A stretch of DNA of 20,000 nt. Origin: an uncultured virus (IMG/VR IMGVR_UViG_3300027842_000121). Taxonomy: Duplodnaviria; Heunggongvirae; Uroviricota; Caudoviricetes. This document shows positions 1-19,759 of this stretch, in pieces (positions within the stretch are counted from its first letter, which is position 1; every line of letters begins with the position of its first letter). The stretch lies in IMG/VR virus record IMGVR_UViG_3300027842_000121; one strand, given 5' to 3'. The position numbers and the translations under genes are program-made. The notes below the pieces were generated by a model, which was given only the letters and a program-made list of their open reading frames with translations, was not told the origin of the DNA and made no database searches.

Positions 1-36
1 CTCATGCGCTTCGGTCAGTCGATAATGCTTCTTCAT
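1..36 (-). CDS. 5' end of a gene running off the window edge (MKKHYRLTEAHE...)
   Basis: ATG at 36-34 overlaps the TGA (35-33) of the preceding gene (ATGA coupling); the frame is open to the window edge. Confidence 0.5.
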   Translation of the reverse strand, partial: MKKHYRLTEAHE

Positions 37-386
37 CCTGTCCTCTCGCGCATCTCCTCGCCGTAAGATTCATCTTCCATCTCGGTCGCCTCGTTCTCGA
101 CGGCAAGATTGGTGATAACCAGCTCGATCCGGCAAGTGCGACCATTCTCGCCGGCATTGATCGAAACGCTGGTCACCCTCGCAAACGCGCGCAGGTCGAT
201 CATGTCGCCGACTTCGCAATCGTCGTCGAGTTCCAGCTTTTCAAGGATCTCCTGATCGAAACACAGGCACAGCCCGGAGGGATAGTCGCCGACGCAATCG
301 ATCGGATCAAAGCCCTCTGGCGGGGCAATGATTTCCTCTTTTTCCTCGCGAGTGCGCCGCATATCGACCATCGAAGACCACGCCAT
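33..386 (-). CDS. capsid staple/cement protein, epsilon15 gp10-like
   Basis: The motif order VDM...YPxGL.L..D.E.LEKL.L....VGD.I...A.A.VTSVS......IEL.IT matches my recollection of the epsilon15 gp10 family. The ATG at 386 overlaps the upstream stop, and the gene lies in the head module. Confidence 0.7.
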   Translation of the reverse strand: MAWSSMVDMRRTREEKEEIIAPPEGFDPIDCVGDYPSGLCLCFDQEILEKLELDDDCEVGDMIDLRAFARVTSVSINAGENGRTCRIELVITNLAVENEATEMEDESYGEEMRERTG

Positions 387-973
387 CAAGCCGCCTCCCG
401 CTCCGTACGGCCGCCTTCGCGCACATCCTCGCTCTCGCCGCGGCTCATCTCGCCCTCACCGGGCGTCTCGTGGCCCTCGTGCCTGGCGTGCATCTGCATG
501 CGCTCGTGCTCGTGCCTGACTCGCATCTGATGATGATCGGTGTGGTGGCGATCGTGCATCTGGTGCGTCTCGTGCTCCTGGCGCCGATGCAGATGCACCA
601 AATCCCCTTCAGCGGCCGCCTGATGCTCGCGTTCGTGGCGGTCTTCCATCTGCCGGTGCTCTTTGCGATGCCCCATATGCTGCTCGCGCCGCTCGTTCTC
701 ATGCCGGGCCGACATTTCCATACGCTCGCGCGCCTTCTCGTCACCGCCCTCATGCTCTTCGGCGCGTTCCTCGCTGGGATTGTCGTTCTTTTCGGTACGT
801 TCCTCGCGTGCCTCGCTCCCGGGATTGCCGCGCTCGCGCGCCTCACGGCGGGGCGACTCGCCCTCGCTGCGGTCGCGCCGCGAAGTCGGCCCGCTGTCGC
901 TGCGCTCGGGCTCGGAAGATCCGGGATTATCGCCGTATCGGGTACGGGCACGGTCGCGGGAACTCTCGGCCAT
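386..973 (-). CDS. His/Glu/Arg-rich protein with 11-residue repeats and an N-terminal RYG motif
   Basis: 195 aa, abutting both neighbours. Repeats of the form MxxRHExExxQ (MEDRHEREHQA, MHDRHHTDHHQ, MRVRHEHERMQ). The N-terminus reads SRDRARTRYG. Confidence 0.75.
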   Translation of the reverse strand: MAESSRDRARTRYGDNPGSSEPERSDSGPTSRRDRSEGESPRREARERGNPGSEAREERTEKNDNPSEERAEEHEGGDEKARERMEMSARHENERREQHMGHRKEHRQMEDRHEREHQAAAEGDLVHLHRRQEHETHQMHDRHHTDHHQMRVRHEHERMQMHARHEGHETPGEGEMSRGESEDVREGGRTEREAA

Positions 974-1204
974 CTATCGACCTTTCGGCTTACGAGGATT
1001 GGAATAGCGCTTCTCGGCGCGCGAGCCGCCGTGATGCATGCCTTGCAAGGTCAACGCCAGCCGCGCGCGCTTGCCGGTCGTACCGCTATCGTGCTGATGC
1101 TCGCGGGCAAATTCCATCGGGCTCTCGCCGGCACGCTTCGCCTGCGCGGTGAGACTTCCGGGATTCTTGATCGCCCCCTTGATCCATTTCTTCTTGCCCG
1201 CCAT
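974..1204 (-). CDS. small basic phage protein (KKWIKGAIKNPG...GKRARLALTL) with C-terminal SRAEKRY
   Basis: Start moved to ATG 1204, which has a GAGGAG RBS upstream. The WI..AIK.PG.L / G.RARLA.TL pattern is one I recall from phage head-region proteins. Confidence 0.7.
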   Translation of the reverse strand: MAGKKKWIKGAIKNPGSLTAQAKRAGESPMEFAREHQHDSGTTGKRARLALTLQGMHHGGSRAEKRYSNPRKPKGR

Positions 1205-1208
1205 CCCA

Positions 1209-1442
1209 TTACTCCTCGTCGCCATATCGATCAGGGACAGGGTCGCCATATCGCACCAGCCTCTTCAGTCGCGCAGCATGTTCGCGTTCGTCGGCGCGAT
1301 TGTGCTCGAACGCCTCCTTGGCCGCAGGTGACTTTGCCGCCGCAGCCCGCTTGCCGTAGTCGCGTACCGCCTTGCGCTCCTCAGCGAGCGACTTCCTGAT
1401 CATCGCCTGCGTGCCGCCGTAGCGGCGGTCAGCCGCTGCCAT
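1209..1442 (-). CDS. encapsulated-ferritin (EncFtn/Flp)-like half-ferritin
   Basis: SLAEERKAVRDY...P......HNRADEREHAA gives the EExxAxxxY...HNRxxExEH pattern of the two-helix ferritin-like family. A GGAG RBS precedes ATG 1442. Confidence 0.7.
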   Translation of the reverse strand: MAAADRRYGGTQAMIRKSLAEERKAVRDYGKRAAAAKSPAAKEAFEHNRADEREHAARLKRLVRYGDPVPDRYGDEE

Positions 1443-1617
1443 AGCGTTTCTCCGCCCGGCTCATCGCCCGAAACCTGTTGCACCAATCCTCCGGCTCGAT
1501 CCTGCCGGCGACAACCTCGCAATCGTGCGGCCGCTCGAAATGGCGGCAAATGCCACAATGGTTGGGTCCAGAGGCGGGATGCTCATAATCGACCGAGGCC
1601 TTAGTCGCCTTCGCCAT
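1429..1617 (-). CDS. HiPIP-like 4Fe-4S protein without a Tat signal
   Basis: K..V.Y...P....C-x2-C-x8-C-x12-C with C.VV.G.I.P..WC, the HiPIP signature. Start taken as ATG 1617 (MAKATK). Confidence 0.7.
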   Translation of the reverse strand: MAKATKASVDYEHPASGPNHCGICRHFERPHDCEVVAGRIEPEDWCNRFRAMSRAEKRYGSG

Positions 1618-1789
1618 ACCGCCGCGCCGATCGAGATTTGTTGGCATGCTTGTTCGCCGTGGCGATAGCTTCGCCCTCGGGAACCCGGGCGTTGATCATC
1701 GCCGTCGCCTGCTTTGCCGCCTTCCCGGCCTCGGCAGTCGAGAGCTTCTTATCATGGCGTTCTTTGTACTGGCGGGCCGTCCACGGCAT
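1601..1789 (-). CDS. small protein, possibly ChaB/DUF2188-N-like, with C-terminal SRSARRYG
   Basis: MPWT...L....KA...A.A......EG.AIA.A pattern. The start overlaps the stop of the ligase gene at 1789. Confidence 0.6.
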   Translation of the reverse strand: MPWTARQYKERHDKKLSTAEAGKAAKQATAMINARVPEGEAIATANKHANKSRSARRYGEGD

Positions 1790-1979
1790 CAGGCTTCTCC
1801 AGATCCGCCAATTCCCGCTTCAACAATGCCACATAGCGGCGCAGATGCGGGTCGAACGGGTAAACCGAAACCGCCCGATCGGCTATCTTCTCGATCTCTC
1901 CTTGTGAAAACGGCCGGCCAAAAATCCCATCGATCCGCCACTCGGCGAGGCTCGAGCTTGCCGCGAAGACGCAGCCCAT
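1752..1979 (-). CDS. possible overlapping gene, or alternative-frame C-terminal domain of the ligase
   Basis: This frame reads like real protein (GEIEKIADRAVSVYPFDPHLRRYVALLKRELADLE), whereas the ligase tail over the same bases looks like shadow-frame sequence. The start is uncertain (ATG 1979 or slightly upstream). Confidence 0.4.
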   Translation of the reverse strand: MGCVFAASSSLAEWRIDGIFGRPFSQGEIEKIADRAVSVYPFDPHLRRYVALLKRELADLEKPDAVDGPPVQRTP

Positions 1980-2958
1980 TACGAGCCAGCCGGCTCGCCA
2001 GCACCGCAAACACAAACCCCGATGCAGGGAGTTCGAGCGGAAACGAGAAGACGGCGCAGACGAGTGCTGCGGCAAGCGCACCATTTGTTGCCCCATCCGA
2101 GGCTGGCGTCACGCGTACCCATCGCCGCCATAGCATCGCGCAAATGCCGGCCGCCAGCAGCAACGGAACGGCGCCGATTTCGACCGCCGCCTGCAAAAGA
2201 TCGCTGTGCGCGTATTCCCAACGCGGATAGGTCGCGCCAAACCACCCCAAGCCATGCCCGAAAGGTGCGATCGAGAGTGCGGCAGCCTGCCAGATTTCGA
2301 TGCGGTCGAGGGCGGTAGTGAACTTTTCCGGGCCGAACAGCAGGATGCTCGCCGTCGCAAAGATCCCGGCCAGCACCGCACCTAAAAACTTTGTCATCGG
2401 CGGTGCGCGCCACACCACCAGAAGACCGACCAGAACGGCGAAAAGGGCGACGCGCGACTGGCACAACAACAGGGGGACAGACAGGACCGGAGCCAAGAAC
2501 CAGTCACGGCGCGCCGCCGCCCATAGAAACACCGGGGCGGCGGTTTCGGCCAGCACGTCGCGATTGAAAAACAATCCGGCCGGCACCGAGAATTGCGGAA
2601 TTGCCCCCCAGCCCAGCATCTGCGGCACTACCAGAGCCGCCGAAACGGCAAGACCGGCGGCAATCCAGGTCATAACCACATCAATCGAGGCAAGCTGCGC
2701 TGCCGCAAGAACAGCGAGCGCCAGGATGACGAGGTGAAAGAGCTGGTTGGCGCCCCCGAGCGGGTCGGAAGACCAAACGAGAGTTAGGCCGGCATATCCG
2801 AGAAGAGCGATCGAAGAGCAGAAAAGCGGGATGCCGACCGCGCGCGGATCAAGCCGCGACACAAGCGGGATGCCGAGCGCGAGCAAAGCCCAGCGCGGCA
2901 TCTCCGCATTGATCGTCGGCCAGAAGGCGAGCATTACGAGACATCCGAGAGCAGGCAA
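1789..2958 (-). CDS. O-antigen ligase / O-oligosaccharyltransferase family membrane protein (Wzy_C domain)
   Basis: About 10 or more hydrophobic segments, plus the motifs GLFFNRD, QSRVA, RIEIWQAA, PFGHGLGWF and YAHSDLLQAAVEIG typical of Wzy_C/WaaL/PglL. Confidence 0.8.
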   Translation of the reverse strand: MPALGCLVMLAFWPTINAEMPRWALLALGIPLVSRLDPRAVGIPLFCSSIALLGYAGLTLVWSSDPLGGANQLFHLVILALAVLAAAQLASIDVVMTWIAAGLAVSAALVVPQMLGWGAIPQFSVPAGLFFNRDVLAETAAPVFLWAAARRDWFLAPVLSVPLLLCQSRVALFAVLVGLLVVWRAPPMTKFLGAVLAGIFATASILLFGPEKFTTALDRIEIWQAAALSIAPFGHGLGWFGATYPRWEYAHSDLLQAAVEIGAVPLLLAAGICAMLWRRWVRVTPASDGATNGALAAALVCAVFSFPLELPASGFVFAVLASRLARNGLRLRGKLEPRRVADRWDFWPAVFTRRDREDSRSGGFGLPVRPASAPLCGIVEAGIGGSGEA

Positions 2959-2959
2959 C

Positions 2960-3373
2960 TCAGTGCGAGCGCCACACGCCGCCGGGCGAAACCTTGGTAC
3001 AAAGATACTCGGTCACCGCCTGCGCCGCTTGCGAAACACCCGTAGACCCCGCCGTCGTGTCGATCGTGTCGGTGCCTTGTGCATAGACCTGCACCGCGTT
3101 CGCGGCCGACGTGTCGACAACGGTAATACGGCGCGGCGCCCTCGTGCAAAGCGGCAGCGATACCGCATCCGCCGCATTCGCCGGGCTCACCGGGTTGATC
3201 GTTCCCTGCAGGATCGTAGCCGCGGCTTGGGTATGTGTCGTCGATGGCGTTGCCGGGATCTGCGTATCCAGCTGATCCGGTACCGGGCCGCCCGAAAGTG
3301 GGGGCACCTGAGCAAAGGCAGCGCCCGACAGCAGCAGGACCGAGATGGTGCCGGCAATTACTGATTTACGCAC
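2960..3373 (-). CDS. putative secreted Thr/Ala-rich protein (possible virion decoration protein)
   Basis: GTG start at 3373 gives a classic signal peptide, MRKSVIAGTISVLLLSGAAFA|Q. The mature part is beta-strand-like with two Cys. Confidence 0.65.
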   Translation of the reverse strand: MRKSVIAGTISVLLLSGAAFAQVPPLSGGPVPDQLDTQIPATPSTTHTQAAATILQGTINPVSPANAADAVSLPLCTRAPRRITVVDTSAANAVQVYAQGTDTIDTTAGSTGVSQAAQAVTEYLCTKVSPGGVWRSH

Positions 3374-3585
3374 AAGGCACCTCCGGTCGTCATCGTCAAC
3401 GGCGCCTGGCCGCCCGCTGAATAGCTCCACCCCGTACCGGAACCAACCGTAGGCGGCGTGCCGCAGCTCGTCACCACCCAAGCAGTCGTAAAGGGCGTCG
3501 TCGTTTTCTGCGACCAGCCCTCGCGCGCCAGGATCGCCAAGGCCAGCATGGCGGCCGCAATTACGACGGCGCGCGGCATCGTCAT
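3358..3585 (-). CDS. small putative secreted Thr/Gly-rich protein with a Cys pair
   Basis: Hydrophobic N-terminus (RAVVIAAAMLALAILA), followed by VVTSCG...TMTTGGALCVN. The start overlaps the upstream stop. Confidence 0.65.
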   Translation of the reverse strand: MTMPRAVVIAAAMLALAILAREGWSQKTTTPFTTAWVVTSCGTPPTVGSGTGWSYSAGGQAPLTMTTGGALCVNQ

Positions 3586-4427
3586 CAGAACTGCCCCGGC
3601 GTCTCGGGCTGTACCGTGCCCATGATCCGGTTCGGCCCGACATACCGGCCAGCCGGGCGCTCGACCACTTCAACCGACGCGTTGCGCAATGTGCGCGGCG
3701 TCCCCATGATCGGCGCCTCGACTGGCCGCCCCTGAATCTCGGCGTGTCGCGGGCGGTTCAGATAAGCCTCGTAGCTCTGCGTCGCGAGGTCAGGCGTGCC
3801 GCCGCCAATCGACTCGAGAAAGAGATCCATCGCCGCTTGAGCAGTCCGATTCAAGGGGCGCATCCCCTCGTTCGGCACACCGCGATAGGTGATCACTTCG
3901 CCGGTCGGGATCAGCACGTCGTCGATGAAAAAGCCGCCAGGTGCGGGCGTGATAATCTCGTATTGCGGCCGCTCGCCATTCTGCTCGTACTGATCGAGCA
4001 GTTCAAAAAGGTCGTTGCGCGCCTTGTTGCGCTTGGCTGCCAGCGCCGGAGGGATCGGCTTTGGACCAAACTGCGTCGGAGCCGGCATCGCATTGCTGAT
4101 CCCGGCGGCAAGTGCCGAGCCCAGGATGCGCGCAAATTCGGTGTTAGCGGAAAGCCCGCCGAGCGCCGCATCATAATCGACGCCGGGATCGGCCGGCTTG
4201 GAATAGCCGTAAGGGTTTGGCGGCAGACCGCCGTCCTGTTGTGGCGCCGCCTCGGCTTCCTGGCGCGCCGCCACCCTCTCCTTCAGACGCGCCCGCTGCT
4301 CACCAAACTTCGCGCGCCGCTCCGCCTGCCGCGCCTCGCGGCCGGCGCGCAACTTCTCCAGATGCTCCGGCGAAAGTTTCTTGCGCCTCAGCATCGGGCG
4401 CGCGGGAACCTCATGCTCTTCACTCAT
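3585..4427 (-). CDS. hypothetical phage head-region protein
   Basis: 280 aa, tightly packed downstream of the cement gene, with protein-like composition. Confidence 0.7.
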   Translation of the reverse strand: MSEEHEVPARPMLRRKKLSPEHLEKLRAGREARQAERRAKFGEQRARLKERVAARQEAEAAPQQDGGLPPNPYGYSKPADPGVDYDAALGGLSANTEFARILGSALAAGISNAMPAPTQFGPKPIPPALAAKRNKARNDLFELLDQYEQNGERPQYEIITPAPGGFFIDDVLIPTGEVITYRGVPNEGMRPLNRTAQAAMDLFLESIGGGTPDLATQSYEAYLNRPRHAEIQGRPVEAPIMGTPRTLRNASVEVVERPAGRYVGPNRIMGTVQPETPGQF

Positions 4428-4433
4428 GATGTC

Positions 4434-4991
4434 TCACGCGACGATGTAATTCGCGGCATAAGCGGCTGCCGCCCAGTCGTCGCGAGCCAAGACGATCGCC
4501 GCCGCCACCGCACCTGCCGAGAAGGTGCTGGTGCCGACGACATAATTGAGCCGGATAAAGCGCGGCATTGCCGCAAGAATGGCGCGATGCGGCCACGCAA
4601 ACCCGATTTTGCCGTATTCCGGCGCTGTCGTCGTCAAGGTCAATTGCGCCACCGTCAGCGCGTCGGTCTCGATATAGGTCGTATAGCCGGCCGCCGTGTT
4701 GCTGCCGCTATCGATCGAGCCCTGGAACTGCACCTGCATCGTGGCCCCACCCGCCGACACGAAGGATGAGGTGATCCACACGCCGACGCGGGGGATGTTG
4801 ACGCCGTCGCCAATACCGAGATCCTCGCCAAAGACGCTGGCGTTCCCGATTCGGTTCAGCGGCGCACTGCCAACGCCGGCCCCCGTCAAATCGATGACGT
4901 TGGTCGATGCGGCAGTCGAGGTGATCGCCTGCCCGGTTGCCGGCGATGCGCCGGGATTCCCCGAGAAAACGAGGTTTTGGTCCATAATCAT
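4434..4991 (-). CDS. Bbp16-family capsid cement protein
   Basis: MIMD..L.FS...QAIT.TA.STNVIDL ... F...G.AT.QV...S ... RFIRLNYVVG..TF.AG.V.A.IV, located immediately downstream of the major capsid gene. Confidence 0.8.
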   Translation of the reverse strand: MIMDQNLVFSGNPGASPATGQAITSTAASTNVIDLTGAGVGSAPLNRIGNASVFGEDLGIGDGVNIPRVGVWITSSFVSAGGATMQVQFQGSIDSGSNTAAGYTTYIETDALTVAQLTLTTTAPEYGKIGFAWPHRAILAAMPRFIRLNYVVGTSTFSAGAVAAAIVLARDDWAAAAYAANYIVA

Positions 4992-5004
4992 CGGAGATCG
5001 CCTC

Positions 5005-6054
5005 TCAGGTCACGCGGGTCTCGGTATTGAGCAAAACATCGCAAACGCGGATCGGAATGCCGCGGAAGCTGGTCACCGGCTCGCCCGCGTAGTCGCGCGG
5101 CCCGAGCAGCACGTTGCGATCACGGATGGCCTGAATGTCCATGTATTCGCGCCCGGTACGGTTGACGTAAATCGCCGGACGGATACCGGGTGCGGGCTCA
5201 TCCGGGGCATCGGTCTTGACGATGCCGGATTGGTTGCGCGCCATTTTCGGCAGGCGGACCACCGCCTTCGAGAGCAGCGCAAAGAGGTCGGGCGCATTCG
5301 AGCCGCCAAGGCCGGCAGAGGTCGTGTCGAGGTTGGCAATCCGCACGACATAACGCCAGTCGCGCACGCATAGCCCGGCCTCGTGCCGGAACCATGACGT
5401 GTAGGCTTCGAAGCGGTTGCCGCTCGAATCGTAGCCGGGAACGATATCGCCCTTGTCCTCAAAGACTATGCCGGCCTTGGACCCCTTCGGAAACAACCCG
5501 AAACAGGTTTCCTCGCCCCAGCCGATAAGCCAAAGCGAGGTATTGGAACTGCCGGTCCCGCCGCCGTCGAGGACGTTCTGCGCGTTCTGGGCGTTCGAGG
5601 ATGTGACCGTATTGAAAAGCGGGGCAAAACCGGTAAATTGCGACGGACTGACGGTCGAATTCCCGTAGAAAATCGTCGTCGCCATCTGCTGCGAGAGGCC
5701 TTCCAAAAAGGCGTTGTCCTCGCTGTAGCGGAATTTCGCGACGTTGCCCGACATCTCGGCAAGCTTGCGATCAATCTGGCTGTAAGCTTCGAGCATGCCG
5801 GTGCCGACGGTAACCTGCGCAGTCGTCGATTTGCCGTAGGGGACGCCCTGATAGAGCAATCGCCAGGTGCCGGAAGGGAGCGAGGTGCGCAGGGTCGTCT
5901 TGTGACCCGTCGGCAGGATGCCCTCGATCCAGATCATGTCGTCGTAAATTTCGTTCGCCTGAGAGAGCATCTCGGCGATGTCGTCGATCTGGCCCTGCGG
6001 GTCCATGCGCCGCGCCCAGTCGGCAAGCGTCAGGTACTGTGCGTTAGTGGGCAT
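5005..6054 (-). CDS. major capsid protein, BPP-1 Bbp17 / epsilon15 gp7 type (HK97 fold)
   Basis: 349 aa with LTLADWARRMDP, EMLSQ.NEI, RT.LP..TWR, F.E.LSQ.MA.T.FYG, GL.VRDWRYVVRIAN.D and FRGIPIR..D.LLNTE..V. Confidence 0.92.
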   Translation of the reverse strand: MPTNAQYLTLADWARRMDPQGQIDDIAEMLSQANEIYDDMIWIEGILPTGHKTTLRTSLPSGTWRLLYQGVPYGKSTTAQVTVGTGMLEAYSQIDRKLAEMSGNVAKFRYSEDNAFLEGLSQQMATTIFYGNSTVSPSQFTGFAPLFNTVTSSNAQNAQNVLDGGGTGSSNTSLWLIGWGEETCFGLFPKGSKAGIVFEDKGDIVPGYDSSGNRFEAYTSWFRHEAGLCVRDWRYVVRIANLDTTSAGLGGSNAPDLFALLSKAVVRLPKMARNQSGIVKTDAPDEPAPGIRPAIYVNRTGREYMDIQAIRDRNVLLGPRDYAGEPVTSFRGIPIRVCDVLLNTETRVT

Positions 6055-6877
6055 TGCCGTTCATTCCTTGGGTGTTGATGTAGCGGCGCTCGATACGCGA
6101 GCCGGACTGAGCGCCCGAAATCTGAGGCTGTACACCGTTGACGGGCGGCTGGACGGGGCGCGGCCTGCCTTCCGACAACGCCGCACCGATATTCGACAGA
6201 AAGCGAATGAAGGCAGGATGATCGCCCATCCCGGTATAGTTCAGGGCATCAAGCAGTTCCTGGCGCTGCTGTTGCGCGCGGGCAGGCGGCACGCCTGGAA
6301 TACTGGCAAAACGATCGCGTACCGCAGCGCACAACCGCAAGGTCGTGTCGCGCCGGTTGCCGCCGATGTCGGGATCACTCTCGAAATTCTCGCGCCAGTT
6401 CTCGCGAGTGCGATCGAACGCCTGCTGCTGATGCTGCGTCATGCGCTCGCGCAGCTCGGTCAGGTTGGCGATGTAAAGATCGAGCAGCGCCTGGCCGCGC
6501 TCCTGCGGCGTCATCTCGGGATTGCCGAGAATGCCGGTAAAGGATTCCATCCCGGCGGCGTCAATTTCGACACCATTGGGTAGAGTAAACGGCTCAAATG
6601 CGATCGGAGCAGGAGCTGGGGCCTCTCCCGCGTCGCCGCTTTCAGGCGCTGCCTCACTGACCAGCGATGGCTTTGGCCCCTCGACTGCGGGCGCCTCGGT
6701 AGCCGCCGCTTCTACCGGGGCCTCGGCCGCAACAGGCGCCGCCGGTTCGGCTGGCGTCGGCTCAACCACCGCTACAGGAGGTGGAGCTGCAGGAGCCGGC
6801 GCCGTCACCTCCGCCGGAGCCGACGCAGGCGGAGGAGCCTCGGCGGCAACCGTTACCGGGGCCGTTTCTTCAGCCAT
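6044..6877 (-). CDS. capsid scaffolding protein
   Basis: Ala/Pro/Glu-rich disordered N-terminus, then F.LP.G.E.D, a helical core (W......DPDIGG) and LN.TGMGDHP..IRF...IG..L.EG. It lies immediately upstream of the capsid gene. Confidence 0.8.
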   Translation of the reverse strand: MAEETAPVTVAAEAPPPASAPAEVTAPAPAAPPPVAVVEPTPAEPAAPVAAEAPVEAAATEAPAVEGPKPSLVSEAAPESGDAGEAPAPAPIAFEPFTLPNGVEIDAAGMESFTGILGNPEMTPQERGQALLDLYIANLTELRERMTQHQQQAFDRTRENWRENFESDPDIGGNRRDTTLRLCAAVRDRFASIPGVPPARAQQQRQELLDALNYTGMGDHPAFIRFLSNIGAALSEGRPRPVQPPVNGVQPQISGAQSGSRIERRYINTQGMNGNAH

Positions 6878-12157: not shown

Positions 12158-12762
12158 GGGAGAATCCAACGTCCCAGCCCCAGATAGCCGTTCGGAATGA
12201 TCACCCCGCCGCCATCGTCCGGGCGTGCGTCGGTGGTACTCCAGACATAAGTGACAGGCGGCTTGTCCCCCGGCTCATAGTACCCCAGCACCATCACCGG
12301 CATCGGCCCCGGAGGAGCCGGCAATGCCCGCAAAGTCGCAATATTCGGCACCCAGCCGAGATTGACCAGCCCGAGCAGCCCGAAGCCCTGCAGTTTGTAG
12401 CGGTGGCCAAGGAGGTCGACGACGCAGGTCAGGCCATTATCGGGCGATGTCGTATCGGTCGGATCCCACTCCCAGAACCCGGCCCCCACCCCGATCGGCG
12501 TACCCCCGACCCCGGTGCCGAACACACCGCCGGTACCGGTGCCGAATACCCCGCCTTCGCCGCTGCCGAACACGCCAGAAGGCGCTATCGAGGGATCGAA
12601 TTGCGGGTCGTAGTAGGCCTCGACGTAGAACACCCGCGTTACGGTCTTGCTGTAATAATACTGGAAAAAGGTCTGGTTGGTGCGCAGCGCATCGAGCGAG
12701 GGCAGAATCGGGATGATCAGCTCGTCCTGCAGCGAGCCGTTGAGGTTGCGCAGGCCGCTCAT
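12154..12762 (-). CDS. protein with two tandem tailspike N-terminal (TSP1/Gp66-N-like) domains
   Basis: Two copies of ..LR......V..YY...........W...D...D.G..(V/I)......R(Y/W). The start overlaps the portal stop. Confidence 0.6.
   Translation of the reverse strand: MSGLRNLNGSLQDELIIPILPSLDALRTNQTFFQYYYSKTVTRVFYVEAYYDPQFDPSIAPSGVFGSGEGGVFGTGTGGVFGTGVGGTPIGVGAGFWEWDPTDTTSPDNGLTCVVDLLGHRYKLQGFGLLGLVNLGWVPNIATLRALPAPPGPMPVMVLGYYEPGDKPPVTYVWSTTDARPDDGGGVIIPNGYLGLGRWILP
12505..12576 (-). repeat. 3 x 24-nt coding tandem repeat (GVFGSGEG GVFGTGTG GVFGTGVG)
   Basis: Directly visible in the translation of 12154..12762. Confidence 0.85.
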
Positions 12763-14624
12763 CGCGGCGCTCCGGGCGCCGGCCCGGGAGCTGCCGGGCC
12801 GGCGCCGCCGCCACCGGTGCCCAGCACCTGGTCGAGTGCGGTGTTGCCGCCGCCGACCGGCGTCTGGCTCAAGGTCTGGGCGCCCTGGATCGCCGCACCC
12901 GCGGCTGCCGTCAACGCCTGCTGCTGCTGCGCCTGCGCCCGGTTGGCGCGCAACTTCCGCACCTCTTCAGGTGAATTGAGAATGTCCACCGGCACGTTGA
13001 GCAGGCTCGCATAGTGCCGCCCGGTTCGGTCGGGGTTGATCAGATCACGCGCTTCCGGGTAGACCGCCCCGAGATTGCCGCCGATCGTCGCCACAAACCG
13101 CTCGATCGAACCCGTCGCAGCCGCCCGCTGCGCCATCGCCATCTCGGAAATGTAATCGATCTGCAGCGGCAGCCGCGCCAAACTCTCCGGCATCGGCGGA
13201 AACATCCCGCGGCGCCGCATGATCTCGAAAATCCGCACTACCGCAGGCGAGCCGCCCTCGCTCTGAAACGCCTCGATGACCGGCCCCAGCACCTGAATCT
13301 TCTCGCCCTTGCGCTCGTAAATCTCCAACTCGTTGCGCGGCTGAATCCCTTCCATCTGACTGATCATCAGAAAGATGTCGGTGAAAAAGGCGCGATTGAT
13401 CCGGTCCTGGCACTCCTTGATGTCGGCCAGCATCCCGGCCAGATCAGGCGCCACCTCGTAGATCGGCCGCATCCCTTTCCCGGCATCGACCTGGCTCACA
13501 TAGGTAATATGCCCCGGCAGGATCGAAGACGGCTGGTTCTTCAACTCGGCATGCGCCAGGAGCGGCGGGCGCACCTGCTTCTCGATCGCCTCGGCCTTGC
13601 GCTTCTGCTCGGTCTGCAACTGCATGATGTCGGGCAGCGCGTCCATCCCCGGCGAACGCCCATAAGCGTCGTTCGAAACCGTCTGCCAGCGCGCCGCGAT
13701 AAACGGCCTCTCATAAAACCCGCGCTTCGACAGGGGCCGCTCGTTCTGCTGCCCCCAAACCCAGTACACCTCGCGCCAGGTGTATTCCTCTCCCACCAGA
13801 CGCACGCTCGATCCCGGATAGCGCCCGCGGATCGCAAAATTGGGCTCGATCGCGTGCGCAATCACCCGCTCGGTTTCGAGTGCGGCACCCTTCGTCGCCC
13901 ACAGCTGCTGAATGTCGGCCGGGCAATTCTCGACCCCGAACATGTCGATAATCTGGGCCACCGTGAGAGTGAATTGCCGGTAAAGCGTATTATCTTCAAA
14001 TTGCGACGAAGCGCCCAAATAATACTCGCCGGCGCACGGATTATACCCGCGCACTACATTTTCTTCGTCCTCGTAAAAGATGATGACGCCAGTGCCGAAG
14101 ACAGTCATGTCCTCGAACATCTGACCCATGCACTTATAAAAATTCGACTCTGCCATCACCGCATACATGCGGTTTTCAACTTCCTCCAGCCACGCCGCAG
14201 CCTCGGCGTCGATCTCCAGGTTGCGGTCGATCCCGGCCTTCAGCTTGAACCAGGGATGTGTGGCGCTGCACAACCCCGAGGTCATCCCCGAAGCGCAGGT
14301 GCGCATCGCCAAGGTGCCGGTCGAGTCCACGATCTCCTGGTTGATCGGAAACCCGCGCACCATCGTATTCGCGGTGATCAGCCAATGGTAACGCCGCGGC
14401 AGGATGAACCTTGCCAGAAGCGACCAATGCTCCCACCACGACAAACGCCAGTTGCGCAGCATCGCCAACCGCGCTTCGAGATGCGTCCAGAGATCTCCCC
14501 AATCGGGATCGTAGAAATGCTCAATGTCGGGAGGACTTGCCGGCTGTGCGGCAAGCAGCGTCGGCGACGACCGCTCGTAATGCGGCGCCTCCTCGACCAG
14601 CGCCAGCGCCGTCGAGCGCGCCAC
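12759..14624 (-). CDS. portal (head-to-tail connector), T7 gp8 / BPP-1 Bbp21 type
   Basis: 621 aa with I.DST...A....ASG..SG......WF.L, D..VFGT, RW......YGRSPGM.AL.DI..LQ, I..AFF.D.F, E..ER..EK...LGPV and YIS.MA.AQR. Confidence 0.92.
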   Translation of the reverse strand: MARSTALALVEEAPHYERSSPTLLAAQPASPPDIEHFYDPDWGDLWTHLEARLAMLRNWRLSWWEHWSLLARFILPRRYHWLITANTMVRGFPINQEIVDSTGTLAMRTCASGMTSGLCSATHPWFKLKAGIDRNLEIDAEAAAWLEEVENRMYAVMAESNFYKCMGQMFEDMTVFGTGVIIFYEDEENVVRGYNPCAGEYYLGASSQFEDNTLYRQFTLTVAQIIDMFGVENCPADIQQLWATKGAALETERVIAHAIEPNFAIRGRYPGSSVRLVGEEYTWREVYWVWGQQNERPLSKRGFYERPFIAARWQTVSNDAYGRSPGMDALPDIMQLQTEQKRKAEAIEKQVRPPLLAHAELKNQPSSILPGHITYVSQVDAGKGMRPIYEVAPDLAGMLADIKECQDRINRAFFTDIFLMISQMEGIQPRNELEIYERKGEKIQVLGPVIEAFQSEGGSPAVVRIFEIMRRRGMFPPMPESLARLPLQIDYISEMAMAQRAAATGSIERFVATIGGNLGAVYPEARDLINPDRTGRHYASLLNVPVDILNSPEEVRKLRANRAQAQQQQALTAAAGAAIQGAQTLSQTPVGGGNTALDQVLGTGGGGAGPAAPGPAPGAPR

Positions 14625-19282: not shown

Positions 19283-19759
19283 TCAGCCGGTTGAATCAAC
19301 ATCTGGTATGTGCTGTATCAATGGCGGATCAGCTTTGCTTACCTCGATCGCCTTGCCGAGCACCGCCTCGAGCGACAGTGTACCGTTCAGCGTGACGTTG
19401 GAATTATCGCGAAACTTTTCCGGTCTGCGACCCTTTAGAGTAAACATCAGCAGGTTGTCGGAGTAGCGGGTAATATGGCCGCAGACATTGCCCTTATAGA
19501 AGACCGGCTCATCTACGCCGCGACGCGCCCTTCGCACCGCTTCATCTTCGAGCGACTCTGTTCCGAGATCATATGCCTTTTCCCATGCCACGCGGAAATC
19601 TTCATCATCTCCCTTCCATTCATATGCAGTCTTCCGTCCAATACCAACCCGATTGCAGGCCTCCGACACCGAGCCGGTGTTCGCAAGCTCAGCCAGAAAC
19701 GCCTCTCGAATTTCCGGGGTGCGAACTGTGTGGATCACGCCACCACGCCTAAAAGCCAT
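19283..19759 (-). CDS. terS: terminase small subunit
   Basis: N-terminal HTH (FL..LA.TG.VS.AC..VGI.R.TAY.W), then LEDEA.RRA..GV..PVFYKG and YSD.LL.F.LK.RRPEKFRD; upstream of terL. Confidence 0.8.
   Translation of the reverse strand: MAFRRGGVIHTVRTPEIREAFLAELANTGSVSEACNRVGIGRKTAYEWKGDDEDFRVAWEKAYDLGTESLEDEAVRRARRGVDEPVFYKGNVCGHITRYSDNLLMFTLKGRRPEKFRDNSNVTLNGTLSLEAVLGKAIEVSKADPPLIQHIPDVDSTG

Follow-up and report, generated by a model that had tools for sequence, protein, structure and literature searches.

A terminal peptide shared by the scaffold tail and unrelated small proteins of epsilon15/BPP-1-type phages: a putative capsid-docking tag

Introduction

Why should several small phage proteins that are otherwise unrelated carry, near one end or the other, the same short peptide as the tail of the phage's scaffolding protein? 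The question is raised by a 20,000-nucleotide stretch of DNA from an uncultured tailed phage (IMG/VR record IMGVR_UViG_3300027842_000121, Caudoviricetes), which as a whole is referred to here as the window. The tagged set of the window comprises an EncFtn-like putative ferroxidase, a PioC/Iro-type high-potential iron-sulfur protein (HiPIP), a His/Met-rich protein and two further small proteins, while a Gp10-like protein encoded beside them is tagged in most relatives. A preliminary description, made from the sequence of the window alone, proposed that these proteins mimic the scaffold tail in order to be packaged in or on the procapsid, and saw in them an encapsulin-like iron/redox cargo system inside a true terminase/portal phage. 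Here we compare the window with related loci, the motif scans covering the 20-kb window and these loci, and conclude that the peptide is probably a capsid-docking tag, copied from the phage's own scaffold tail, through which the tagged proteins become enclosed in the procapsid.

The tag has a simple form: a basic or polar run, one variable residue, an invariant aromatic residue (Tyr, rarely Phe) and usually Gly, at a distance of 2-16 residues from the protein end. It is shared between proteins, conserved at the peptide level, located outside folded domains at either terminus, and co-varies with the scaffold.

Results

Translation of the minus strand returned every peptide listed in the preliminary description, each in its place (Table 1). 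The pattern SR..[KR]RY has four matches in the 39,996 residues of the window's six-frame translation, all four of them in the coding frame and within the last 20 residues of a protein, namely the scaffold, the 62-residue p62 protein, the HiPIP-like protein and a 91-residue protein of the p76 family. Random 20-residue tails of the proteins' own composition gave no match in 1998 of 2000 trials and a single match in the other two, for a pattern that was picked post hoc, after inspection of the data. The shorter motif [RK]RY[GS] occurs in four of the 27 minus-strand open reading frames (ORFs) taken as genes, and these four are consecutive small genes (974-1789). The two codings of SRAEKRY differ at 6 of 21 bases, all differences being synonymous, which bears out the earlier claim, drawn from differing codons, that conservation is at the peptide level. 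The carriers had also been called otherwise unrelated, and this holds because, after clustering with the tags masked, the 195-, 91- and 62-residue proteins, the only tagged proteins of the window to enter multi-member families, fall into three different families.

It could be argued that such a motif is a by-product of constraints on the DNA (overlapping starts, ribosome-binding sequences, gene-boundary repeats or compositional bias) and has no function as a peptide. Two of the window tags do overlap the next start codon, the TATGG of 'YG' holding the ATG of the following gene at 1617 (1615-1617) and 1442 (1440-1442) on the minus strand, and one tag is preceded by a GGAG-like sequence. In addition, the 3' end of the EncFtn-like gene overlaps the conserved N-terminal coding region of the next gene by 41 nt in another frame, and the two C-terminal RYG motifs of the EncFtn-like protein (VRYG and DRYG) lie within this two-frame overlap. 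At the two start-codon junctions the TAT-GGC ('YG') codons are used twice, tag and translational coupling sharing identical bases. Overlap with start codons accounts for part of the local DNA, but not for the tags that overlap no start, which are those at the C-terminus of the 91-residue protein, at the N-termini of the 195-residue and EncFtn-like proteins, and on the scaffold. Together with the synonymous differences between the SRAEKRY copies, the confinement of the motif to the coding frame and to protein ends (4 of 4 six-frame matches), and the co-variation of the residue before Tyr with the scaffold across genomes, at either terminus, this contradicts a DNA-level by-product as a general explanation, and we hold it to be highly improbable.

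A scan of IMG/VR with the major capsid protein (MCP) of the window returned 37 loci at 54-84% identity, and the scaffold tail was readable in 35 of them as well as in the window. All 36 tails have a Tyr within the last 22 residues. The residue before it is R in 16 tails (the window's included), L or M in 11, W in 8 and F in one, which defines four variants of a basic-x-Tyr motif (R-Y, L/M-Y, W-Y and F-Y). Terminal xY[GSNAP] motifs were then counted over all non-scaffold ORFs, with proteins de-duplicated. R-class loci contained 35 motifs with R, 9 with L/M and 1 with W; L/M-class loci 3, 10 and 0, respectively; and W-class loci 3, 4 and 11 (chi-square 53.7, p = 6e-11, with loci treated as unrelated). 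In W-class loci all 11 occurrences of WY are terminal and none is internal; in R-class loci, termini show a 3.2-fold enrichment of RY[GSNAP].

As a few families could drive this raw count, families were clustered with tags masked and retrieved without reference to the tag. The p62 proteins agree with their scaffold in 7 of 7 cases, with R-Y (R-F once) in R loci and W-Y in W loci, and the p76 proteins in 8 of 8 (R, F and W classes), to which an L/M-class form adds 5 of 5. In family A, which is tagged at the N-terminus and includes the 195-residue protein of the window, 15 of the 17 readable members are concordant, the mismatches being one F in place of W and one D-Y; family B (MPxVSxAQ) is concordant in 11 of 12, the twelfth member being untagged. 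Seven further loci, from metagenome-assembled genomes of Alpha- and Betaproteobacteria, were examined after the rule had been formed, and among the six in which genes lie downstream of the MCP, five follow it (L050, L051, L052, L055 and L056). The preliminary description had suggested, as a check on its proposal, testing whether cargo tags in related phages co-vary with the C-terminus of the scaffold, and the outcome is clearly positive. The scaffold-mimic proposal is strongly supported in so far as the tag is the motif of the scaffold tail and varies with it. The tag is not peculiar to the iron proteins: it marks at least five families and, across the whole epsilon15/BPP-1 capsid lineage, the Gp10-like protein.

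The same pairing extends to cultured phages. The tails of the scaffold and of the Gp10-like protein match in six of seven named relatives (epsilon15, phiV10, BPP-1, KL4, CP2 and SR18): both carry ..FYP in epsilon15, ..LYG in phiV10 and ..RMY in CP2, Bbp18 and Bbp20 of BPP-1 both carry ..RLY[AG]AS, KL4 has ..AAKLY on the scaffold and ..AAKFY on the Gp10-like protein, and SR18 has ..SLY and ..KLY, respectively. The scaffold motif is also present in the seventh, Ab31, where a Gp10-like gene was not seen in the stretch fetched.

Gp10 of epsilon15 (111 residues) was identified in infectious particles by proteomics and first assigned to the outer 'staple' density (PMC9207676). In an AlphaFold-based re-analysis of 2022, a 130-residue protein fits the staple density and gp10 does not (PMC9207676), so that gp10 is left without an assigned place in the virion. 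The 130-residue protein is gp8, a Bbp16 homologue according to its GenBank record. The occurrence of gp10 in virions without an assigned site, an indirect experimental support for packaging, is consistent with an internal protein that lacks icosahedral order. Nor are ferritin-like proteins in phage heads without precedent, as phage G virions contain one by proteomics (PMC12484599).

On an MCP tree the W class is a single clade, the R-class loci form a grade in which the L/M clade and L034 are nested, and the named phages are placed as outgroup; the four classes require 6 changes, compared with a mean of 15.5 when shuffled. From this nesting it follows that the class changed several times, and the signal is a handful of events, each repeated over several unrelated proteins per genome. 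MCP columns were screened for those in which R-class loci and the remaining loci have no residue in common, and only column 114 of 373 separates the two. In the first set the residue is N or D in every one of the 14 R-class loci, and M, V, F, R or K in the rest. In the independent set three R-class loci have N, two others have V, and L054 and the L-class locus L056 have Q. Overall, 17 of the 18 loci whose scaffold is R-class have N or D, as against none of the 22 others. A passage of PMC3863775 had raised the doubt that residue 114 might lie outside the spine helix; this was rejected, the text of the paper and the AlphaFold2 (AF2) model both placing the spine helix in the N-terminal element. 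In the AF2 model of the MCP (pLDDT 72) residue 114 is part of a long helix (105-130). Column 114 is a lead to a candidate contact, in which a polar residue would pair with Arg and a hydrophobic one with Leu, Met or Trp, as would be chemically sensible.

A peptide of this kind might instead be a processing or turnover signal for a phage or host protease or chaperone, serving for example in clearance after assembly. Degrons are typically terminal, at either end, and relatives of the scaffold are labelled 'protease' in PHROGs and GenBank records. However, searches of domain libraries detected no protease domain in the scaffold or the rest of the module, the class of the tag follows the capsid lineage and one MCP column, and the capsid proteins of BPP-1 are reported to be uncleaved (PMC3863775). 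We consider a processing signal improbable.

The ferritin-like and HiPIP labels of the preliminary description are both confirmed by sequence. The EncFtn-like protein matches PF22277 (E-value 1.1e-8; 35.2 bits, above the cut-off of 27), the PDB entries of NE0167, EncB, EncC and EncFtn, and, below their cut-offs, the NCBIfam encapsulin-cargo models (EncB_fam, TIGR04535; about 1e-12). Residues 18-67 align without gaps to residues 28-77 of PDB 5da5, which places E22, Y29, E52 and H55 on Glu32, Tyr39, Glu62 and His65 (ExxH) of Rru-EncFtn, matching all four residues of its ferroxidase centre (PMC11202242). The EncFtn domain, to which the tag is an add-on, covers approximately residues 13-67 of 77. 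At 66% identity, P0002 is the nearest homologue in a set of 1.84 billion representatives; it retains the N-terminal tag as ..QRYG and has a C-terminal ..MRYG as counterpart of VRYG in the window, and the 13 more distant homologues (14 having been fetched of 46 HMMER matches at E<=1e-3) are without tag. The P0002 locus was not found in viral contigs, and its cluster lies on a 4.3-kb contig; three bacterial ferritin-like fusions returned by a metagenome scan for this locus were uninformative. A word-index search with the EncFtn-like protein matched only the protein itself, and two candidate relatives from the IMG/VR scan (L045 and L046) were rejected, as their matches span only 14 residues.

The HiPIP-like protein, which most likely starts at 1617 and not at 1647, aligns over residues 3-50 of 62 with PioC (PDB 6xyv, E 6.7e-6), its four Cys being aligned at the spacing of the family and its tag lying beyond the domain. 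It also matches NF041615 (Iro iron oxidase; E 1.5e-13) with 50.8 bits, below the cut-off of 100, and has no Pfam match at E<0.01. A related phage fragment (L048) encodes p62, HiPIP-like and family A proteins, all with ..RRY tags. Past its tag, the 195-residue protein is a low-complexity His/Met/Glu/Arg run with many HxxH/MxH-like spacings, which suggests metal binding; domain, PHROG and NCBIfam searches gave no family match. In the window the Gp10-like protein has an acidic C-terminus and only a degenerate tag, while most members of the family carry the tag after an acidic linker (alignment A3). Its AF2 model (pLDDT 72) consists of a long β-hairpin (residues 65-98) with disordered or helical flanks, and a Foldseek comparison with the PDB gave no significant match (best E 0.59), so no function can be assigned to it.

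A HiPIP-like domain is also present in an unrelated phage (L047, 1469-10146), at the C-terminal end of a 279-residue ORF. There, three termini share a run ..IHLHIH.., and three proteins have ..[AD]FW[SD]K.. close to the C-terminus, one of them encoded by a scaffold-like ORF upstream of a putative capsid gene; these motifs may represent another tag system.

The EncFtn-like protein, the HiPIP and the His/Met-rich putative metal binder invite the idea that a true tailed phage loads encapsulin-style iron-oxidising cargo through copies of its scaffold tail, and so represents a living intermediate. We regard this as possible but doubtful. None of the loci L001-L044 encodes an EncFtn-like, HiPIP-like or His-rich protein, from which it follows that the iron-related cargo was acquired locally, on top of a tagging system that is general.

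The tagged p76 proteins have a second peculiarity, in that the long form begins much like the N-terminal arm of the MCP from the same phage. In L030 (15094-15141), L031 and L033, 13 of 16 residues are identical between p76 and the arm, with many synonymous differences in the DNA, and in L001 (11324-11365) the two share the same departures from the consensus. The likeness is weaker in the window (1205-1249, minus strand), and the N-termini of Gp10-like proteins also show a weaker resemblance to the same peptide. In BPP-1 the N-terminal peptide of the MCP reaches outward, adding to a sheet in the cement protein (PMC3863775). With a copy of the MCP arm at one end and of the scaffold tail at the other, p76 could be an adaptor.

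The two-ended p76 would equally suit a decoy, and the tag might bind an assembly partner in order to modulate assembly, either by competing with the scaffold or by binding scaffold, portal or cement protein and leaving before or during DNA packaging. Competition of this kind, for a capsid-protein site, is shown for CpmB of SaPI1 and the 80alpha scaffold (PMC5644958), and the binding of the BPP-1 MCP peptide to the cement protein (PMC3863775) points in the same direction. Yet a purely architectural role is hard to square with at least five unrelated families that include enzymes (EncFtn-like and HiPIP-like), and epsilon15 gp10, rather than leaving, is kept in virions (PMC9207676). On this evidence we judge modulation of assembly unlikely.

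All genes of interest lie on the minus strand of the window and form the late operon of a tailed phage (Table 1). The ORF next to the MCP gene, which we infer to encode the scaffold, has relatives in 41 loci. The capsid module is of epsilon15/BPP-1 type, with cement protein, Gp10-like protein, T7-type portal and terminase in one operon (PF21190, PF21628, PF12236 and Sf6-type TerS), and the description of the virus as a true terminase/portal phage proves correct, its GP7-family MCP being encoded in an operon with portal and terminase. By tblastn, the window MCP is 38-48% identical to those of 103 phage records, epsilon15, phiV10 and BPP-1 among them; all of these are below 50%, and near-identical phage DNA was not found. 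Two further protein genes separate the cement gene from a membrane-protein gene, after which come the five tagged small genes and then the Gp10-like gene.

Three other ORFs of the window deserve mention. The multi-pass membrane protein, with its weak match to O-antigen ligase/polymerase, is encoded inside the head operon, has relatives in L027, L016 and L029, and may be the product of a serotype-conversion gene. The ORF with GapR-like and ribosome modulation factor domains adjoins the portal gene, and the TROVE ORF, by its appearance a fragment or short derivative, lies in a stretch of lower GC between the scaffold region and the upstream genes.

Table 1 Features of the window, in the order of transcription; tags are listed below the protein that carries them.
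Feature	Position	Strand	Evidence or remark
Small terminase, Sf6-type TerS	19283-19759	-	
GapR-like/ribosome modulation factor protein, 153 aa	14736-15197	-	GapR-like DNA-binding domain, E 2e-20; ribosome modulation factor domain, E 4e-7
Portal, T7-type	12759-14624	-	PF12236
TROVE (Ro60-like) ORF, 124 aa	7663-8037	-	Matches middle of domain
Putative scaffolding protein, 277 aa	6044..6877	-	ORF immediately upstream of MCP; phrog_458; no Pfam domain
Scaffold tail SRIERRY	6080-6100	-	Inside last 20 residues (6047-6106); Tyr 11 residues from end
MCP, epsilon15/BPP-1 type, 349 aa	5005..6054	-	PF20911 GP7, E 1.5e-118
Asn114 of MCP (codon)	5713-5715	-	Long spine helix
Bbp16-like cement (decoration) protein, 185 aa	4434..4991	-	PF21190, E 5.5e-11; no tag; relatives in 36 loci
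Multi-pass membrane protein, 389 aa	1789-2958	-	Weak O-antigen ligase/polymerase (Wzy_C) match
p62 family protein, 62 aa	1601..1789	-	Alignment A2, homologues from R-class and W-class loci
C-terminal tag SRSARRYG	1613-1636	-	
PioC/Iro-type HiPIP-like protein, 62 aa	1429..1617	-	PDB PioC 6xyv; from ATG at 1617
C-terminal tag SRAEKRYG	1438-1461	-	
EncFtn-like ferritin-like protein, 77 aa	1209..1442	-	PF22277
N-terminal tag AAADRRYG	1416-1439	-	
C-terminal VRYG	1245-1256	-	
C-terminal DRYG	1221-1232	-	
p76 family protein, 91 aa (long form)	974..1249	-	phrog_20603; homologues in 8 loci (R, F and W classes)
C-terminal tag SRAEKRYS	1001-1024	-	
His/Met/Glu/Arg-rich protein, family A, 195 aa	386..973	-	
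N-terminal tag SRDRARTRYG	932-961	-	
Gp10-like protein, 118 aa	33..389	-	PF21628, E 4e-10
Degenerate tag ..SYG..	about 36-83	-	In acidic C-terminus

Discussion

If the peptide is a capsid-docking tag, the scaffold tail would dock on the inner face of the MCP during procapsid assembly, and proteins with the same peptide at either terminus would use the same site and so be enclosed. Some of these may then remain in the virion and reach the next cell. Capsid binding, encapsidation and any iron chemistry within the head are predicted parts of this scheme.

Several points weigh against a docking tag. Some are exceptions to the rule of co-variation. In the L/M class the enrichment at termini falls short of significance (odds ratio 1.9, p = 0.11), and the Gp10-like proteins are the least regular of the tagged families: in R loci four are concordant, one is L-Y (..RLY in L010) and five of ten, the window's included, lack a clear tag; in L/M loci four are concordant and one is F-Y; and in W loci all are F-Y rather than W-Y. 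The D-Y member of family A, in L024, and the independent locus L054 (8110-11618), in which the scaffold has ..KRY and the tags of the small proteins ..KMY, likewise break the pattern. Others concern the number of events. Classes mostly follow clades, which leaves few that are independent, and the well-supported (starred) branches alone force one change for R, so that a single origin of R is possible; column 114 is only a lead, as one column in 373 could arise by chance on the tree. Finally, the binding and packaging of the window proteins are things that we infer, Bbp20 is neither seen nor excluded in BPP-1 because the gel bands taken for mass spectrometry are limited to two major proteins (PMC3863775), and a DNA-filled T=7 head has little spare room, which makes an encapsulin-like mineral store hard to picture.

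Should the docking-tag explanation be correct, the protein cargo of a whole podophage lineage, epsilon15, phiV10 and BPP-1 included, would be readable from sequence, and epsilon15 gp10 would be offered a place now that its staple assignment has been withdrawn. It would also provide a short natural tag, functional at either terminus and available in class variants (R-Y, L/M-Y, W-Y and F-Y), for loading HK97-fold shells, and the occurrence of scaffold-type tags on an EncFtn-like protein and a HiPIP would make a kinship between scaffold tails and encapsulin peptides directly testable. Should the more doubtful idea of encapsulin-style cargo hold as well, encapsulin loading peptides and phage scaffold tails would be the same device, p76 might act as the adaptor of the system, and the phage would have an inbuilt means of shielding its packaged DNA against iron chemistry, or else of supplying the host with redox proteins.

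Comparison with known systems

The internal proteins of T4 enter the prohead by a short N-terminal capsid-targeting sequence, which is removed by the prohead protease, and are later injected. As proposed for the window, a short terminal address peptide is found on several unrelated small proteins; unlike in T4, the tags described here occur at C- as well as N-termini, the motif is that of the scaffold tail, and no protease domain was found in the module. For the maturation protease of HK97, Duda and co-workers reportedly found in 2013 that a C-terminal targeting signal suffices for entry into the HK97-fold procapsid. Common to both cases would be a C-terminal peptide that carries a protein into a procapsid of this fold, but the HK97 signal serves one protein and one purpose, with no family of cargo reported.

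An iron-sulfur protein is a co-cargo in the IMEF encapsulin system. The cargo peptides of encapsulins (on EncFtn, EncB and EncC) resemble the present case in the HK97-fold shell, the ferritin-like two-helix ExxH di-iron cargo and the short, disordered terminal peptide (PMC11202242). The window is nevertheless not an encapsulin system, the shell being a GP7-family phage capsid with portal and terminase, and the tag is of the scaffold-type basic-x-Tyr-Gly form, not an encapsulin targeting peptide. NE0167, the closest solved relative of the EncFtn-like protein of the window, is itself a short ferritin-like protein without targeting peptide (PMC11202242).

The nearest parallel to sharing a site with the scaffold is CpmB, which uses the capsid-protein site of the 80alpha scaffold (Dearborn et al. 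2017, PMC5644958). As proposed here, a second protein shares the capsid-binding end of the scaffold and its site on an HK97-fold capsid protein. CpmB is, however, a single hijacker that changes capsid size, whereas the phages studied here tag at least five unrelated families of their own, at either terminus, and are not known to alter capsid size by it.

Epsilon15 gp10 belongs to PF21628 ('Gp10-like'), of which the window encodes a member and which is tagged in most relatives. The 'major coat protein-like' name of this family, in contrast, rests on the old staple assignment disputed in 2022 (PMC9207676), and the passages of that paper on which we draw make no mention of a link between tag and scaffold. 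A description of the tag was not found in the literature searched, a coverage from which subscription journals, including the epsilon15 genome and proteome papers, fall outside. Capsid-targeting peptides and scaffold mimicry are already known from T4 internal proteins, the HK97 protease and 80alpha/SaPI1; what is new is the motif as such, together with its occurrence across the epsilon15/BPP-1 capsid lineage and the finding that, in a true phage, a HiPIP and an EncFtn-like protein carry it.

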